Shown here: piece by piece, positions 30,001 through 36,000 of the stretch
Layout: each line of letters begins with the position of its first letter
Numbering within the stretch: the first letter of the stretch is position 1
Source of the DNA: Bdellovibrionota bacterium
Lineage (GTDB): Bacteria > Bdellovibrionota_C > UBA2361 > JBGSMV01
Direction: 5' to 3'
Assembly: GCA_041739995.1 (NCBI GenBank)
Contig: JBGSMV010000058.1
Location: 1 to 47,690, forward strand
Length of the DNA stretch: 47,690 bases
Made by a program: the position numbers

Positions 30001-33000
30001 GTTGAATCTCGCCGAATAAAGGATGCCCGGCCGATTTATAGCGATAGGGTGGGCTACGTGCAGCAAGTAAATGTGGATACCTTGCAAGAGATAGCCCAAA
30101 GCTACGAGACACGGATCGTGGTTTTTGCGCTTCCTGGCGCCTTTGTCACACCAAATTCGCCCTTAGCCTACATTGAGCCGAACCCTGACTTTGAAAAGAA
30201 GATTGAGCTAGAGCAATTGATAAAGGCGTTTGTCGTTGGCGATGATAGGAAGTTTGATGAAGATCCTCGCTTCGGTTTGATAGTTCTCTCGGAAATCGCT
30301 GGTCGTGCTTTGTCTCCGGCGGTGAATGACCCCGGCACTGCCATAGACATTATTGGAACCTTTGTAAGGCTTTTTTCGATTTGGGGTGAGCCTCTGACGG
30401 AGGCGCAAGAAGAGAAGATTGAATTTGATCGAGTTGCGGTTCCTGAAATTTCGATTGACGACATGTTTGATGATGCCTTTACCGCAATAGCCCGAGACGG
30501 TGCGGGTTCTATTGAAGTTATAATGAGACTGCAGAAGGCTTTCATCGCTCTCGCATCTATGGATAGTTCTGAAATGAAATCAGCTGCAGAGCGCCACTCA
30601 CGATTAAGTCTCGCAAGAGCTGAAAAGAGAATGGACCTTTCCGACGATTTGGAGATAGTACAAACCTTATCGGAATCCCTCTGCAGGTCTAAGGCTTGAG
30701 AATCTGTTCGTCTGAAATGTGGAAAGCGCTCGGTAGCGTCGCCTAGGCTTCTACCCCTCAGAGGAAGAAGCCACAAACCAGAATTAGGTGGCTATTATCG
30801 CTACCAGTGACTAGGCTCTCTCCGACATAGAGACATGCGTTAAATTGGTAGTCACCATATAGGGAGTCTCCGCAATGACAGCCGATCTTCAATCTTTACT
30901 TATGACCTTACTGATTGGTGGTGTGGCAGGCTGGCTTGCTGGCACACTAATGCGTGGCGGAGGATTCGGTATTGTCGGCGATATCGTTGTCGGAATTGTG
31001 GGTGCTTTTGTAGGTGCCTGGATTTTTGGAATGCTCGGAATTGCTTGGGGTGGAATGCTGGGTGCAATCGTCTGTGCGACAGTCGGCGCCATGGTATTAA
31101 TATTCCTCATTCGTCTTATCAAGCGGGCGTAAAAGAGTACCTGTCCTGCCCGCTCTATCTCTTCCCTTAGCCCGGCTGCCCGTCAATTCGCGGGCGAACA
31201 AGCACGCTGAAGTAGGCTAGAAGAAACAGGCTGAATGCAGCTATCCACAGTGCTTGAGAGAGTGCGACCCAAAGTAAGTATTGTTGCGGGGCAAACAAGG
31301 GAAATCCAACGCGGACAACGAAGCCAAGTACCATTGCACATAAAGCAAAAGTAGTGAGCTTCGGCGGATTCCTAATATTTCGCCCTGAATGACCAAGCGA
31401 CACTCGAGACATCATGCCAATTGTCGCCAGTCCGACTCCGCCAACTGCAAAGGCATGAACTGCAAGAAACGGTGAAGCGAGAGAGAGCGCACTAGGACCA
31501 CAAAGAATTAGTCTTTCAGAATCCTCTAGACATTTAAGCTCTAATTTTGAGGAAAGTTTCTCTCTGTGAAGTATGCCTAGCGTCGCTACGCAAACCTCGT
31601 TTCTCGCATAACGAAATACCATTATTTTCTTTGTGTTTTCATGATTTTAGCTAGCGAAGCTTGCTCTCACGTTTGATAGTGACGAGGTTCTCCATGGTTA
31701 ATGGAGTAGTGAATTGCAGGAGTCTCTCACACCATCTCAGCAGCGTTTCGTTACGCTCCTTGGAACCTCGTGGTTTCCACCCCACCCAGAGATTCTTGCT
31801 CGGGTGCAAGCGCGTGTTCGGGATGAGCGCGCTATACTGGATCGCGACGCGCTAGAGCGCGAGTTGCAAGGCGATCCGAGTTTGTATTTGCGTACCGTTC
31901 GCGAGCTTACTACGCGCGTGCTCCGTGAGGGCGAGAGTGCTGCGGGTGGAGAGGACGTGCCGCCAGTGCGCCACCGCCTTCATCCGTCGCAGCTAATTCG
32001 CAATGCTTCGGTTCGGGCGCTACGCGAAGTACTCGATGTATCCGCAGATAATTGTTCAGCAGTACCTTTCCACGGTGGATCAGAGTGGGCCGCGAAAAGA
32101 ACCGCCCAGGCGCTTTTCGGGGGAGTTGTCGTTGATGCTCTGGCAGCATCTAAGGTGGCGGGTACGGGGCTTGGCTTCGCCTCAGGGGTTTTTCGGCAGT
32201 TGGGAATGCTGTTAATCGTTTGGCATCACCCGCACGTATACAGTCGCCTCGTCGAATCATTGCCCGTAGGACAGTCGCTTGATGAGGCCTTGGCGCGGGT
32301 ACTTGGCATGTCACCTGCCTCCCTAGGGTTAGTGCTTGCGAGAGAGTGGCGTATCAGTCCGGAGATTCGCTCAGCAATGGGAGATCCCCTCGAAGGCGAG
32401 GAAGAAACGGCACAGGCAGTGGGGGGTCATTTGCGGGGGCTGTGCGAGCTTGGAGAGTCGCTTGCGACAAGCCGATTTCTTAAGGCATCAAGTGCAGGAC
32501 TTATAGAGTATCAGGAGGCCTCTAGTCGCGCTCAGTTAATTCTGGGGAATGACGGTCTTCGGGCCATCTTCGCTCAAGTAGACCGCGCATGTGAACATCT
32601 GATGCGCTCCTTTCCTTCGGCATTTCCGGCGGAAGGCCCCCAAAGACAGCGGCCTGAACCAAAGCCATTTTCCACCAAGCTTCCGCCTTTCGTAATTGAG
32701 CAATTGCAGTTTCTTCGCGATAACTTCTCCGGTGGCGTTGCACCCGAACGATTGCGAAGCGTTGTGGAGCAAGTGGTGAGGTCGCTCGGCTTTGTCAGTG
32801 GCAGACTCTATGTCTTTGATCCCGGAGATCAGCGACTCATTCCACGCGTGGCGTGGGGCGCGGCGGAGTTGAAGTCTATTCGCTCTATCAATCTTGGCCC
32901 TGAAGAGGCGCAATCAAAAAAAACGCACACAACGGAACAAGACCAAGTGGTTCGAGATGCATTTGGCTCTCGAGAACCGAAGGTTAACGGGCGTGCTATT

Positions 33001-36000
33001 GCGGTACTGGCCGTGCCGATTGGAATCGACAATACGATTGGCGTGCTGGCGTTGGAGATGAAGCGAGAGTTCTTCGAGCCGCGGACAGAGCTTGTTCAAG
33101 ACTGTGCGGTGGCCCTCGGTGCAGCGATCTCAGAGGCGATCGATCTTTAACCGCGAAGAATATAGAGAGCAGGTAGCGAGATGATGTCTCCACCCGCCGC
33201 GAGCGGCTCTCTTTATTAAAGAGAGCGCTTCTCAGCGACGAGCGGAGACAAGGGGATGGCTAAGCGGACTTAATGCGCATTCCGTAGAACGAGCGATGCA
33301 CGAACCAAAGTCCAACTACCAAAAGAACCAGTCCAATCCAGACTGCCACCTCATGAGATTCCACCGCGATTTCTACCGCGAGGAGTCCAAACAATGTGGT
33401 GAACTTAATGATTGGGTTCAACGCCACTGAAGAGGTGTCCTTGAAAGGATCGCCCACCGTGTCACCAACCACTGTGGCAGCATGAAGCGGCGTTCCTTTT
33501 TCGCGAAGATCAACTTCGACAAACTTCTTGGCATTGTCCCAAGCACCACCGGCATTCGCCATGAAAATAGCCTGGTAAAGCCCAAACACCGCAATCGACA
33601 CAAGGTAACTTGCGAAGAACTCGGGGTCGAAACAAGCAAACGCCAGGGTAAGGCAGAAGACCACTCCGAAGATGTTGATCATGCCCTTCTGAGCGAACTG
33701 AGTGCAGATCTTCACCACTGCCTTTGAGTCCTCAACTGAGGCCTTTTCCCTATCGAGACGAATATTGGCCTTGATGTACTCAACCGCACGAAACGCGCCA
33801 GTTGTCACGGCTTGCATTGAAGCACCCGTGAACCAGTAAATGACCGCGCCGCCGGTGATGAGTCCCAGAAGAACCTTAGGAGCGAGAAGGTCAAGCTTCA
33901 ACTCAAGCAAGAGAATGATCGAGAAGATCATCGTCGTTGCACCAATAACTGCGGTTCCGATTAGCACTGGCTTTGCAGTTGCCTTAAAGGTGTTCCCCGC
34001 TGAGTCGTTTTCCTCAAGGAAGAGCTTGCCGCGCTCAAAATTGGGGGTGAACCCAAAGTCCTTCTTAATCTCTTCTGAAATATTTGGAGCCGACTCAATC
34101 TGCGAAAGTTCGAACACTGACTGAGCATTATCCGTCACTGGGCCGTAGCTATCGACCGCGATAGTAACGGGGCCCATGCCCAATAGTCCGAAAGCCACCA
34201 AGCCGAACGCGAACACAGCCGGGTAGATCATCACCTGCTCAAGCCCGAGGGACGAGGTGTAGTAGGCCACGTACATCAAGGCAACAATGGTCAGGCCCTT
34301 CCAGAAAGCGCTGAAATTTCCAGCGACGAGTCCGGAAAGAATCGTGAGCGATGCGCCACCTTCGCGCGAAGCAGCCACGATTTCAGCGACATGCTTCGAC
34401 TTCGAGGAGGTGAATACTTTCGTGAACTCAGGAATGACGGCTGCGGCAAGCGTGCCGCAACTGATGATGGTGGAGAGCTTCCACCATAGGCCATGTCCAA
34501 GGAACGAAATGAGCTCGTAGCTGACCAGGTAGGTCACCACGATTGAGATTAGCGAAGTAACCCATACCAATGAGGTAAGCGGTGCTTCGAAGTCGAACTT
34601 GTCGGACTGACCGTATCTGGCCTTTGCGAGAGCGCCATTCACGACATAGGCAAGCACCGAAGTGATTACCATCAGAACACGCATCACAAAGATCCAAATA
34701 ATGAACTTGGCTTGCAGTTCTGGGCCTGAAATTCCACCTACAAGCGAATCGCTCACTACGGGACGACCGTCTATGCCGACCATCATGCCAACTGCCAAGC
34801 AGATGAAGGTAATGAGAGCAACGCCGGTCACACCGTAGGTTTCAAATCCGTCAGCGGTTGGGCCGACGGAATCGCCTGCGTTGTCGCCTGTGCAGTCTGC
34901 GATAACGCCAGGGTTTCTTGCGTCGTCTTCCTTGATGTTGAAGACGATCTTCATCAAGTCAGCACCAATGTCAGCAATCTTGGTGAAGATACCACCGCAG
35001 ATACGCAGCGCAGAAGCACCAAGGGATTCGCCGATGGCAAAACCAATGAAGCATGCGCCCGCGTACTTAGGATCAACTAGAAGTAGAATCGCGAGCATCA
35101 AAATGAGCTCGACGCAAATCAAGAATACGCCAATCGACATACCCGCACGTAATGGAATGTCCATAACTGGGTACGGTTTTGCTCCGAGCGAAGCGAAGGC
35201 GGTACGGCTGTTTGCGTAGGTGTTGATACGAATTCCGAACCAGGCCACACCGTATGAGCCGAGAATTCCCAGTATCGACCAGAAAATAATCATGGCAACG
35301 ACTGGTATTGGCTGATGCACAAGGACGTAGAAGTAGTACACCATGCAGGCGCCGATAAGCGCTTCAAGGGCGATCAGAAACTTCCCTTGTTGGAGTAGGT
35401 AGGTCTTGCAGGTCTCATAGATAATATCGGAAACCTCAAGCATGAGCCGATGTGCGGGCAGGCCCTTCACCTTCATGAACTCAGCGTAGGAGAAGACGAT
35501 GCCCAAGGCGGAGACGACTACACCAATCCAAAGCAGTGTTCGTCCGGAAATGTCGGATCCAAGCACCGAGAACATCACGTTCAAATCGGGAACCTTGATA
35601 TTTACATCTCCTGAGGCATGCGCAGCGACGGGGGCAAATAAACTTAACCCGCAAAGCATCAAACAGGCGTATGCCAGCGTCGACGGCGTGCCCTTACGTG
35701 GCAAAAGCGAGGGAAACACATCTCGCAAGCGAGAAAGAGGTGATGAACGAAAAAATTTACCGAGCATAGCCTTCAATTTAACTCCCCAAATTATGCACTC
35801 TAGGGACGAGCGCGTTTCAGATTGGTTATTTCAAAACAGTTACTTCAGAACTTTCTTTTTAAAACAGGGCTTCTCTACAGAGCTTCCCTACGTGGCGCGA
35901 TATGCCATCTCCATAGGTCAGATTTGAATGGAGTGACCCGTTCAAATGACCAGATTTTCCGAATAGCCCATATGAATCGCTCGTTTTTGATCGATTGTAG

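Follow-up and report, generated by a model that had tools for sequence, protein, structure and literature searches.

The HDOD protein SadB is described in PMC12075610 as a proteolysis adaptor that does not bind c-di-GMP. It shares an all-helical HDOD fold (PDB code: 9qzk) with MmoQ (3p3q), Cj0248 (1vqr) and the structures 3hc1 and 3m1t, and in such known HDOD proteins the partner domain may be YbaK or a receiver domain. Loss of c-di-GMP signalling has been reported for Helicobacter and Campylobacter subgroup II, which, according to PMC9239204, lack EAL and HD-GYP domains as well as any active GGDEF, and carry one to four leftover GGDEF domains in which the active and RxxD sites are both degenerate. 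A minimal network size for c-di-GMP is proposed in the same paper, and the bacteria treated there are host-associated with very small signalling networks.

The genome considered here (hereafter, G000) is that of an uncultured Bdellovibrionota-like bacterium and is 91.26% complete in 81 contigs. An HDOD-GAF gene lies at 31714..33150 of the window, the whole analysed stretch of 47,690 nucleotides. Domains in G000 were detected by six-frame profile searches, and the comparison was extended from the 40 relatives sampled by the genome-wide survey's note to all 124 genomes of the phylum (36 families), of which 73 are of high quality (≥90% complete, ≤5% contaminated). The loss of c-di-GMP in this phylum appears partial and patchy, not complete and ancestral, because relatives keep an unusual putative double cyclase and the lineage keeps a dead cyclase domain next to a cell-shape gene.

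The HDOD-GAF protein at 31714..33150

The gene at 31714..33150 is real, an ORF on the plus strand with a TTG start and a GGAG sequence 10 nt upstream, and it encodes 478 residues. It stands alone, with a divergent NnrS fragment as one neighbour and a convergent H+-pyrophosphatase gene as the other. Pfam identifies a partial HDOD domain (28.0 bits, cut-off 22.9) and a GAF_3 domain (33.5 bits, cut-off 27) spanning residues 345–477, and the AF2 model has a pLDDT of 89.8. The all-helical HDOD domain occupies approximately residues 1–300 (31714..32613, plus strand), with modelled helices from 7 to 299; Foldseek matches it to 3p3q (3e-5), 3m1t (5e-5) and also 3hc1, 1vqr and SadB, and 3m1t is recovered at 6.8e-5 in a profile search of the PDB. 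The GAF domain, a presumed small-molecule sensor, covers approximately residues 325–478 (32686..33147, plus strand), with strands and helices modelled over 325–475, and resembles the GAF domains of PtsP (3ci6, 2e-4) and Lcd1 (GAF-cAMP, 5w10, 5e-4), as well as 4g3v, in Foldseek searches.

The position of the HD dyad is taken by RQ, with R161 invariant and Q162 near-invariant among 69 sequences, and the family-wide conservation of this replacement indicates that the HDOD domain is probably non-catalytic. The protein thus resembles SadB in lacking the full metal-binding His/Asp set, and differs from known HDOD proteins in that its partner is a C-terminal GAF domain. The gene is one of six HDOD-GAF paralogs in G000 (~480–540 aa), and the ~480-residue architecture forms a family of its own with 493 cluster representatives. 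By analogy, the protein would be a cytoplasmic sensor rather than an enzyme of c-di-GMP, c-di-AMP or cNMP pathways, its GAF domain binding a small ligand and its HDOD domain relaying the signal by protein contact, in the manner of the adaptor SadB. The six diverged paralogs may then correspond to six ligand or target specificities.

The wider signalling repertoire of G000 agrees with the earlier description of a signal-rich, flagellated bacterium with an expanded HDOD set to within a few units: we count 26 HisKA domains, 10 sigma-54 activators at E≤1e-10, 24 Flagellin_N matches, and 11 HDOD matches at E≤0.1, eight of them over the cut-off. Four class-III cyclases were recovered, as previously listed, and the five cNMP-binding proteins appear as six stretches in five frames. 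A search of the relatives for other dinucleotide cyclases was positive: the universal one is the c-di-AMP synthase, whose DAC domain is matched in 114 of the 124 genomes, in 72 of the 73 high-quality ones and twice in G000. One G000 copy is a 289-aa frame (132.7 bits), and the genome also encodes a PgpH-like 7TMR-HD protein; the other is a 528-aa protein with a 390-aa N-terminus, whose gene seems to share an operon with those of an HDOD paralog and a lytic transglycosylase.

c-di-GMP components in G000 and across the phylum

The reported absence of c-di-GMP enzymes and receptors from G000 stands insofar as no diguanylate cyclase, EAL, HD-GYP or PilZ domain is detectable, and needs amending in that a degenerate GGDEF-fold domain is encoded. 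Six-frame searches returned no EAL, PilZ or HD_5 match at E≤0.01, no SMODS or ComFB, and no Pfam GGDEF match at E≤10, and phmmer with 18 GGDEF proteins as queries matched only a dead GAF-GGDEF gene. One PilB-like ATPase of G000 (contig C64) begins RVGELLVRTGLITSEQYQHATELQ, which is close to the MshEN motif, and its second MshEN repeat is without the arginine; the near-canonical first stretch may constitute a c-di-GMP receptor site.

The dead gene (C55:12545–13954 in G000) occurs in 108 of 124 genomes and in 67 of the 73 of high quality, and the cell-shape gene mreB follows directly downstream on the same strand at 58 of 63 loci. Pfam misses the GGDEF-fold domain of the C55 protein, for which the AF2 model has a pLDDT of 83.5. 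Residues 181–330 match GGDEF domains with Z-scores of 13.7–14.4 (3icl, 4urq, 4iob, 4zmm and PleD 2v0n), residues 8–185 match GAF domains with Z-scores of 15–16, and Foldseek aligns the whole model with the GAF-GGDEF cyclase Dcsbis (2e-9) and with PelD (~1e-5). In the C55 protein INGDV stands for GGDEF and the first-strand aspartate is replaced by Arg/Val; across the family the motif columns are '..LR....NF' and 'LP.GD.L', and RxxD is lacking. To judge from these residues, this core gene is catalytically dead everywhere, all catalytic positions and the RxxD inhibitory site having been replaced.

Across the phylum, the reported lack of EAL and PilZ is essentially borne out, with a single genome of the 124 over the cut-off for either domain, and the contigs concerned measure 2.6 kb and ~3 kb; PilZ is short and divergent, so that variants may escape Pfam. 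The count for HD_5, absent from G000 as stated and earlier given as 6 of 41 relatives, rises to 27 of 124 genomes over the cut-off, about a fifth; of the domains inspected, the majority are degenerate. In a motif scan of the best 10 HD_5 loci, eight failed to show both motifs; direct reading of five of them gives S[HDPN]IG in place of HDxGK and G[HAIF]P in place of GYP, and in one more (L093) the sole HD comes straight after the GFP. No c-di-GMP-I riboswitch was found in the 124 genomes, a search in which the control was also silent (0 of 14 genomes).

The claims that GGDEF is missing from the whole phylum and that its loss is ancestral are not supported by the larger sample. GGDEF exceeds the Pfam cut-off in 15 of 124 genomes and is matched in 32 at E≤0.01 (21 of 73 high-quality). 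Full-length canonical domains are confined to four genomes (G027, G113, G020 and G011). That of G011 (5.1 Mb, 3 contigs) belongs to a DUF4118-GGDEF protein with RYGGDEF, encoded at 1.10 Mb of contig 2 in a genome that also has an HD_5 protein. Three of the contigs with canonical domains are MAG pieces of 2.6–6.2 kb, possibly mis-binned.

More widespread is a family with two GGDEF-like domains in tandem, matched in 28 genomes at E≤1e-3 (14 of 73 high-quality), or 27 without the canonical G020 protein. The partial 39.6-bit match in G110, previously taken as isolated, belongs to this family, which spans 12 taxonomic families and includes all four other genomes of G000's own family, the congener G067 among them. 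It was found nowhere else, and all 118 database matches carry PF00990; from this distribution the family is native and not contamination. Its profile matches 47 PDB sequences at E≤0.01 (best 1.1e-11), all GGDEF-domain proteins by name. In most members domain 1 retains GGDEF together with the upstream Asp/Asn/Asp, and domain 2 reads R-x-GGG-x-L. Among 26 aligned members, 19 have GGDE[FLMI] (16 exactly GGDEF) in the context R-x-GGDE[FLMI] with the upstream residues intact, three have [KA]GDE[FL] and four PGFDE; D196, D240 and E241 never vary, and conservation of N204 is at least 90%. That these residues persist in proteins only 18–26% identical to the reference points to selection acting on the active site. 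Members from one taxonomic family share 28–31% identity. An intact GGDEF motif is no proof of c-di-GMP synthesis. The tandem proteins have no recognisable sensor domain, and no conserved or defence-type neighbours lie within the 1.5-kb flanks examined. HD_5 occurs in 14 of 31 genomes with the family and in 13 of 93 without it (odds ratio 5.1, p 7e-4, uncorrected for relatedness).

A six-frame search of G000 with the 26-sequence tandem profile gives no match, even at E≤100. The G067 gene adjoins a methyltransferase gene; at the corresponding site in G000 (C17) the contig is continuous and carries secF-secD-yajC. A single-copy gene such as the one in G067 could sit in the missing part of G000.

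Origin of the reduced toolkit

We favour, with a probability of about 0.6, a lineage that eroded its c-di-GMP toolkit with no clean loss at the root, G000 representing an end point. Judging by the distribution, the ancestor would have carried GGDEF domains; the tandem enzyme appears to be the only plausible GGDEF-type cyclase remaining and to have been lost repeatedly, G000 included, so that G000 would make no c-di-GMP, its signalling depending on c-di-AMP, on cyclases of the cAMP/cGMP type and on two-component systems. Alternatively, the tandem family or the four canonical GGDEFs may have been acquired later. Rather unlikely, in our estimation, is one loss in the phylum ancestor that left every member without c-di-GMP, with weak GGDEF and HD_5 matches as relics or contamination and cNMP and HDOD proteins taking over. 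The solitary EAL and PilZ matches on contigs of ~3 kb or less, the lack of riboswitches (the control being equally silent), the eight deficient HD_5 loci, PGFDE in 4 of 26 tandem proteins and the universally dead core gene all suit such a loss, but the native tandem family with its conserved catalytic residues and the canonical protein deep within the three-contig G011 genome argue against it, and the takeover finds no support.

A comparably small chance attaches to G000 possessing c-di-GMP after all, through a cyclase in the unassembled 9% or one too divergent to detect, and through non-PilZ receptors such as an MshEN-type PilB N-terminus. The fragmented assembly, the tandem gene in G067 and three other family members, and the PilB-like start would fit, and profile blindness is real here, since Pfam misses G000's own GGDEF-fold domain. 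Set against this are the tandem-profile search without a match, the phmmer search that met only the dead gene, the intact syntenic site, the missing arginine of the second MshEN repeat and the absence of HD_5, EAL and PilZ, which would require several independent genes all to be missing. Least probable of all, we consider, is that tandem proteins yield something other than c-di-GMP (an oligonucleotide, or a dinucleotide that is mixed or linear), c-di-GMP but not GGDEF chemistry being absent from the phylum. Cas10 and mammalian adenylyl cyclase are single-active-site pseudo-dimers, and the tandem chain likewise pairs a palm domain equipped for catalysis with a degenerate one; its rapid divergence, lack of sensors and want of EAL or PilZ partners point the same way. 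However, N204 and the 'VD' of the consensus correspond to PleD N335 and D344, which read the guanine base, and the lack of defence-type or conserved neighbours in the flanks examined and the co-occurrence with HD_5 also speak against another product.

Comparison with known systems

Canonical diguanylate cyclases (PleD, WspR and SadC; PF00990) share with tandem domain 1 the D-x-LTGL, D...N...D and R-x-GGDEF motifs. The tandem proteins differ in having two GGDEF-like domains per chain and no known sensor, and were found only in this lineage, and the Pfam model matches only their first two thirds (profile positions ~3–115 of 161), leaving the second half of domain 1 unmatched. The C55 protein shares with PelD, a c-di-GMP receptor of Pseudomonas aeruginosa (4etz, 4dmz and 4euv), the succession of a GAF domain and a dead GGDEF fold. 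Unlike PelD, it has no RxxD site, its N-terminus is a disordered stretch and not a recognised membrane anchor, and its gene precedes mreB, with no Pel operon in the surrounding DNA examined. Its best whole-chain structural match is Dcsbis/PA2771 (4zmu and 4zmm), one of the GAF-GGDEF diguanylate cyclases, whose GGDEF domain aligns at Z 13.9; the C55 protein differs in having all its catalytic positions replaced. Relative to the CdaA/PgpH system of c-di-AMP, G000 has counterparts in the 289-aa DAC frame and the 7TMR-HD protein, and additionally the 528-aa DAC protein beside an HDOD paralog. Helicobacter and Campylobacter subgroup II resemble G000 in being flagellated, in having degenerate relics and in lacking active GGDEF, EAL and HD-GYP domains; unlike them, G000 maintains its 26 HisKA domains, at least 10 sigma-54 activators, four class-III cyclases and 24 flagellin-type matches, and the reduction extends over 124 genomes of 36 families.

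The HDOD-GAF protein and its paralogs

The gene at 31714–33150 (forward strand) is a single open reading frame of 478 amino acids with a TTG start codon and a GGAG sequence ten bases upstream. Pfam recognises an HDOD domain in residues 152–222 (28.0 bits against a cut-off of 22.9), a partial match spanning only positions 119–190 of the profile (PF08668), and a GAF_3 domain in residues 345–477 (33.5 bits, cut-off 27). An AlphaFold2 model built on 69 relatives (mean pLDDT 89.8) is composed of a helical domain (residues 7–299) and an alpha/beta domain (residues 325–475). Foldseek comparison of the model matched the former to HDOD structures (3p3q, 3e-5; 3m1t, 5e-5; 3hc1; 1vqr; SadB, 9qzk) and the latter to GAF structures (3ci6, the cAMP-bound GAF domain of Lcd1 5w10, and 4g3v; 2e-4 to 5e-4). 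The above-threshold profile match and the all-helical HD-like fold identify the protein as an HDOD protein, and profile and fold likewise identify the GAF domain. The sequence LLRQLG, which we equate with the HD-dyad motif LLHDIGK, occupies the HD-pair position. No His-Asp metal-binding dyad was found in the 69-member alignment, where the position reads R161-Q162, the arginine invariant and the glutamine near-invariant. Most likely the protein is a ligand sensor whose non-catalytic output domain would work by protein contact, by analogy with SadB, an HDOD protein described as an adaptor for AmrZ proteolysis that acts without binding c-di-GMP (PMC12075610).

When 1.84 billion cluster representatives were searched exhaustively with phmmer, 493 relatives were found at E ≤ 0.001, of which 373 reach E ≤ 1e-10, and nearly all of the 150 matches listed align end to end, at 420–530 amino acids. 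Six HDOD-GAF paralogs are encoded in the genome under study (E ≤ 1e-12; contigs C48, which is the window, C41, C74, C57, C64 and C58). By BLASTP, four of them align with most of the window protein at 25–27% identity, and the C74 paralog, outside that comparison, shares 26% in the genome search. Between one and seven copies occur in 13 of the 15 genomes searched (this one and 14 relatives). The genome also encodes two short canonical HDOD proteins and three with other C-termini.

The window gene is solitary among its neighbours. Upstream lie genes for a DUF2254 membrane protein (29338–30699, forward) and a Transgly_assoc protein (30875–31132, forward), followed by an NnrS-like frame of 151 amino acids (31167–31622, reverse) that matches only the last 107 positions of its profile (265–371 of 371) and is probably what is left of a gene after truncation or a frameshift; an H+-pyrophosphatase gene (33260–35776, reverse) converges from the other side. 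Elsewhere, within C57:14226–16877 (locus L179), the gene of a 490-residue HDOD-GAF paralog (reverse strand) diverges from that of a 265-residue cNMP-binding protein across a 384-bp gap, and at three places (C79:124563–127412, C11:21078–23061 and C74:10700–13537) an HDOD-family gene has a HisKA histidine-kinase gene no more than about 1.5 kb away. Positions 18001–28000 of the window have a G+C content of 0.43–0.46, against 0.50–0.55 elsewhere in it, and may represent acquired DNA.

c-di-GMP and c-di-AMP components in the genome and the phylum

The assembly (3,812,401 bases in 81 contigs, 91.26% complete, 2.4% contaminated) was searched in six-frame translation. GGDEF (PF00990) gave no match even at E ≤ 10 in this 91% complete assembly, and EAL (PF00563), PilZ and HD_5 (PF13487) gave none at E ≤ 0.01, so that neither an EAL nor an HD-GYP phosphodiesterase was found at that threshold. 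No cyclase with an intact GG[DE]EF motif was found in the assembly, the sole GGDEF-fold domain reading INGDV. The statement of the genome-wide survey's note that this bacterium lacks recognisable c-di-GMP enzymes and PilZ receptors thus holds for the assembled 91%. ComFB was likewise without a match at E ≤ 0.1. The c-di-GMP-I riboswitch (RF01051) was detected in none of 124 phylum genomes, but in none of 14 controls either, and the result is uninformative. A PilB-like ATPase (C64:300690–300944, locus L181) has the N-terminus RVGELLVRTGLITSEQYQHATELQ, which we take to be near-canonical for the first MshEN c-di-GMP-binding repeat; its second MshEN-like repeat begins with F, not R.

Other signalling families are plentiful, and the counts put forward earlier were about right: four class-III cyclase domains, 26 HisKA domains and ten sigma-54 activator domains (the last at a strict E ≤ 1e-10), together with six cNMP-binding stretches in five frames. 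Flagellin_N gave 24 six-frame matches, 23 above the Pfam cut-off, in frames of 71–667 amino acids, so that a genome of 3.8 Mb has unusually many flagellin-type genes; they are spread over many contigs (for example C81:34828–36219 and C42:109041–110364).

The census, earlier a sample of 40 genomes, was extended to all 124 assigned to the phylum, from 64 genera and 36 families, 73 of them of high quality (at least 90% complete, at most 5% contaminated). EAL exceeds the cut-off in one of the 124, G020, a metagenome-assembled genome (MAG) 71% complete in 500 contigs, as part of a 7TMR-GGDEF-EAL protein whose contig is 2.6 kb long. PilZ is also found above cut-off in a single genome, on a contig of about 3 kb. 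The near-absence of both families is therefore confirmed on a broader footing. GGDEF, in comparison, scores above its Pfam threshold in 15 of the 124 and reaches E ≤ 0.01 in 32, including 21 of the 73 high-quality ones. The matches fall into three classes: canonical domains, tandem proteins and GAF proteins with a GGDEF-like domain. Full-length canonical domains (98–159 bits) occur in four of 124 genomes, namely G027 (two proteins, PAS-PAS-GGDEF and HAMP-GGDEF, whose contigs measure 2.7 kb and 6.2 kb respectively), G113 (PAS-GGDEF), G020 (the GGDEF-EAL protein just mentioned) and G011. The G011 protein (DUF4118-GGDEF, motif RYGGDEF) cannot be a binning error, since its gene is at position 1.10 Mb on contig 2 of a three-contig genome of 5.1 Mb. 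With these four genomes and the tandem proteins described below, predicted GGDEF cyclases with an intact site are present among members of the phylum. One short GGDEF-like protein (303-aa frame, contig C9 of G005, locus L012; 24.8 bits, motif TSGDEF) falls outside all three classes.

HD_5, the Pfam family that holds HD-GYP, is above cut-off in 27 of 124 genomes. Its equation with active HD-GYP phosphodiesterases was rejected for most, as only two of the ten best loci (L088 and L092, each on a contig about 3 kb long) carry HDxGK together with GYP. A degenerate family of about 400 amino acids (119–133 bits) is represented by L089, L090, L091, L094 and L096, from G065, G113, G044, G046 and G064; in the five loci inspected directly, AAMLS[HDPN]IG replaces HDxGK and G[HAIF]P replaces GYP. 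Such degenerate HD-GYP domains are possibly receptors. The 31 genomes with a GGDEF-motif protein and the 27 with HD_5 overlap in 14 (odds ratio 5.1, Fisher p = 7e-4 with kinship ignored), which is only a hint because related genomes are not independent.

Other dinucleotide cyclases had been left unsearched. SMODS-type CD-NTases are without a match in the genome under study (six-frame, E ≤ 0.1). Diadenylate cyclase (DAC) is above cut-off in 114 of 124 genomes and in 72 of the 73 high-quality ones. The genome under study has a CdaA-like DAC frame of 289 amino acids (C58:32528–32869, 132.7 bits against a cut-off of 27), a second DAC protein of 528 amino acids with the domain at its C-terminus (C46:37774–38151, 57.2 bits, same cut-off) behind an uncharacterised N-terminus of 390 residues, and a PgpH-type 7TMR-HD protein. 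The second DAC gene belongs to a tightly packed three-gene cluster (C46:37748–41659, reverse strand; L113:4748–8659) with genes for a 519-residue HDOD paralog and a 249-residue SLT lytic transglycosylase, an apparent operon led by the distant HDOD paralog. The universal cyclic dinucleotide of the lineage is c-di-AMP, not c-di-GMP.

Tandem GGDEF proteins and a degenerate GGDEF fold beside mreB

The tandem proteins (488–926 amino acids in stop-to-stop frames) each contain two weak PF00990 stretches, scoring 30–71 bits over the whole protein where Pfam matches; the member in G066 is missed by Pfam. With the G067 member as query and a threshold of E ≤ 0.001, 28 of the 124 genomes have a match, or 27 without the canonical G020 protein, and 14 of the 73 high-quality genomes have one. 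The earlier claim that GGDEF is missing from the whole phylum through an ancestral loss is too strong in the face of these 27 genomes and the four with canonical domains. The single "partial 39.6-bit hit" it recorded in G110 is a tandem member with the motif RLGGDEF.

Twenty-six members, one per genome, were aligned, leaving out a partial copy in G052 and the canonical G020 protein. The motif of domain 1 reads GGDE[FLMI] in 19 of 26 (exactly GGDEF in 16), [KA]GDE[FL] in three and PGFDE in four, the last all from one genus. Although identity to the reference is only 18–26%, D196, D240 and E241 do not vary among the members, and at least 90% of them share N204. In the consensus D-x-LTGL ... D-x(7)-N-x(8)-D ... 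R-x-GGDEF we take the conserved residues to be, following the PleD structure, the aspartate that binds metal, the two residues that read guanine, and the catalytic loop. Domain 2 has the same layout with the motif R-x-GGG-x-L. The family profile matches 47 distinct PDB sequences at E ≤ 0.01 (best 1.1e-11), all GGDEF-domain proteins by name and the majority named diguanylate cyclases. An assignment to class-III cyclases or Cas10-like proteins was rejected on the strength of these matches and of PF00990 as the only Pfam family found; a Cas_VVA1548 match in one tandem protein is below threshold (15.6 bits). The spread of the family outside the phylum was gauged solely by word-index search; in the 5.8-billion-protein index, all 118 matches at E ≤ 1e-5 carry PF00990 and only two are full members. 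No conserved neighbours of the tandem gene were found beyond within-family synteny (26 loci, 1.5-kb flanks). An operon with an HD_5 gene, considered for G066, was dropped because efp and a HEAT-repeat gene separate the two genes, which lie 3 kb apart. The conserved catalytic residues suggest that the tandem protein is an unusual, patchily persisting cyclase.

All four other genomes of the taxonomic family to which the genome under study belongs, G067 (same genus), G064, G065 and G066, encode a tandem protein, whereas a six-frame search of the genome under study with the 26-sequence profile gave no match even at E ≤ 100. The tandem gene of G067 and a methyltransferase gene face each other tail to tail; in the genome under study the ortholog of this methyltransferase gene (C17:11792–12622, 68% identity) is followed by secF, secD and yajC on an unbroken contig. 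The tandem gene is therefore truly absent from the syntenic site; it may lie elsewhere in the missing 9%.

The third class comprises proteins with a GAF and a GGDEF-like domain; in the other orders of the taxonomic class they have 480–720 amino acids and a PF00990 match of 20–34 bits. Searched by phmmer with these, the genome under study gave a sole homolog (C55:12545–13954, reverse strand), in which Pfam recognises only the GAF domain. This protein, used as query, recovers the family from 108 of the 124 genomes, among them 67 of the 73 of high quality. The gene overlaps the start of mreB (L027:3489–4562, reverse strand) and has RNase G upstream. Of 63 loci in the species collection, all but two labelled as MAGs, 58 have mreB directly downstream in the same orientation; at least two of the five others (L147 and L157) end soon after the match. 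Given the conservation of the pair (58 of 63 loci) and of the protein (108 of 124 genomes), this cell-shape gene has here a core partner that is specific to the lineage.

The AlphaFold2 model of the C55 protein (pLDDT 83.5 for residues 99–470) most closely matches, over the whole chain, the GAF-GGDEF cyclase Dcsbis (4zmu, 2e-9), with PelD at about 1e-5. By VIA-align, residues 181–330 superpose on GGDEF domains (3icl, Z-score 14.4, rmsd 3.2 over 141 aligned residues; 4urq, 14.3; 4iob, 14.1; 4zmm, 13.9; PleD 2v0n, 13.7) and residues 8–185 on GAF domains (Z-scores 15–16). In an alignment of 33 orthologs, other residues stand at the position of the first-strand aspartate, at the Asn/Asp positions and in the GGDEF loop, the C55 protein itself reading VVRIVTTNF and RLINGDVL at the motif positions. 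Like PelD, the protein has a GAF domain followed by a degenerate GGDEF fold; the PelD-type RxxD inhibitory site, five residues before the GGDEF position, was however not found in the same alignment, where the region reads Q-Q-x-L-P-P-H-F-P-x-x-x-L-P-x-G-D. The absence of GGDEF from this genome accordingly stands as far as Pfam matches are concerned, but the genome is not free of GGDEF domains, since C55 carries one that is dead and conserved.

Proposed erosion of the signalling toolkit and known precedents

We take these results to mean that the toolkit has eroded. Because the dead GGDEF domain is core, the ancestor of the lineage would have had GGDEF. Early loss of EAL, PilZ and the sensor-GGDEF repertoire is what the absences in the census point to. 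The unusual tandem cyclase, its presence observed and its activity putative, survives patchily, and the genome under study, as far as assembled, has lost this enzyme too. No result ties the growth of the HDOD set to the loss of c-di-GMP as cause or effect. What had been observed earlier is confirmed in part and the interpretation is supported in part, the phylum-wide ancestral loss being too strong a claim.

A more ambitious reading joins these components. c-di-GMP is usually seen as a near-universal switch between swimming and attached life. In a reduced GGDEF circuit with neither EAL nor PilZ, the self-contained tandem enzyme, of whose two GGDEF domains one is live and the other dead, would make a cyclic nucleotide; dead enzyme domains would read it, both those of degenerate HD-GYP proteins and that of the core protein with a GAF domain and GGDEF fold in the mreB operon; and the messenger would govern cell shape, not the usual motile-sessile switch. 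Genomes such as the present one would have dropped the enzyme and kept the MreB-linked module for another GAF-bound ligand. This reading as a whole is a speculative proposal, to which we give roughly one chance in eight. The product of the tandem protein with its one live site, the role of the dead domain beside MreB in nearly all members, and the ligands of the six HDOD-GAF proteins are all testable.

The results also urge caution with censuses that use Pfam only, to which the GGDEF fold of this genome is invisible, and with subsampled ones, as the tandem family, in 27 genomes, was missed by a sample of 40. Among the matches listed for Bdellovibrionota and c-di-GMP, titles and abstract openings name no work on the present uncultured lineage, and searches on GGDEF-absence censuses and on HDOD with c-di-GMP likewise returned nothing on it. 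The tandem GGDEF proteins, the MreB-linked dead GAF-GGDEF protein and the HDOD-GAF family are new variants of known domains. Reduction of c-di-GMP signalling at the level of a lineage is a known phenomenon, here in a new setting.

Helicobacter and one Campylobacter subgroup are described as having lost their active diguanylate cyclases; the GGDEF domains that remain there are degenerate in the active as well as the inhibitory site (PMC9239204). According to the same source, this loss accompanies very small signalling networks, and the known cases, in small-genome, host-bound bacteria, gave rise to the idea of a minimal network requirement (PMC9239204). The present lineage differs, with 124 environmental genomes and many kinases, sigma-54 activators, cyclases and flagellins. 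Because this rich signalling set coexists with almost no EAL, PilZ or canonical GGDEF, the lineage is a counter-example to the minimal-network idea.
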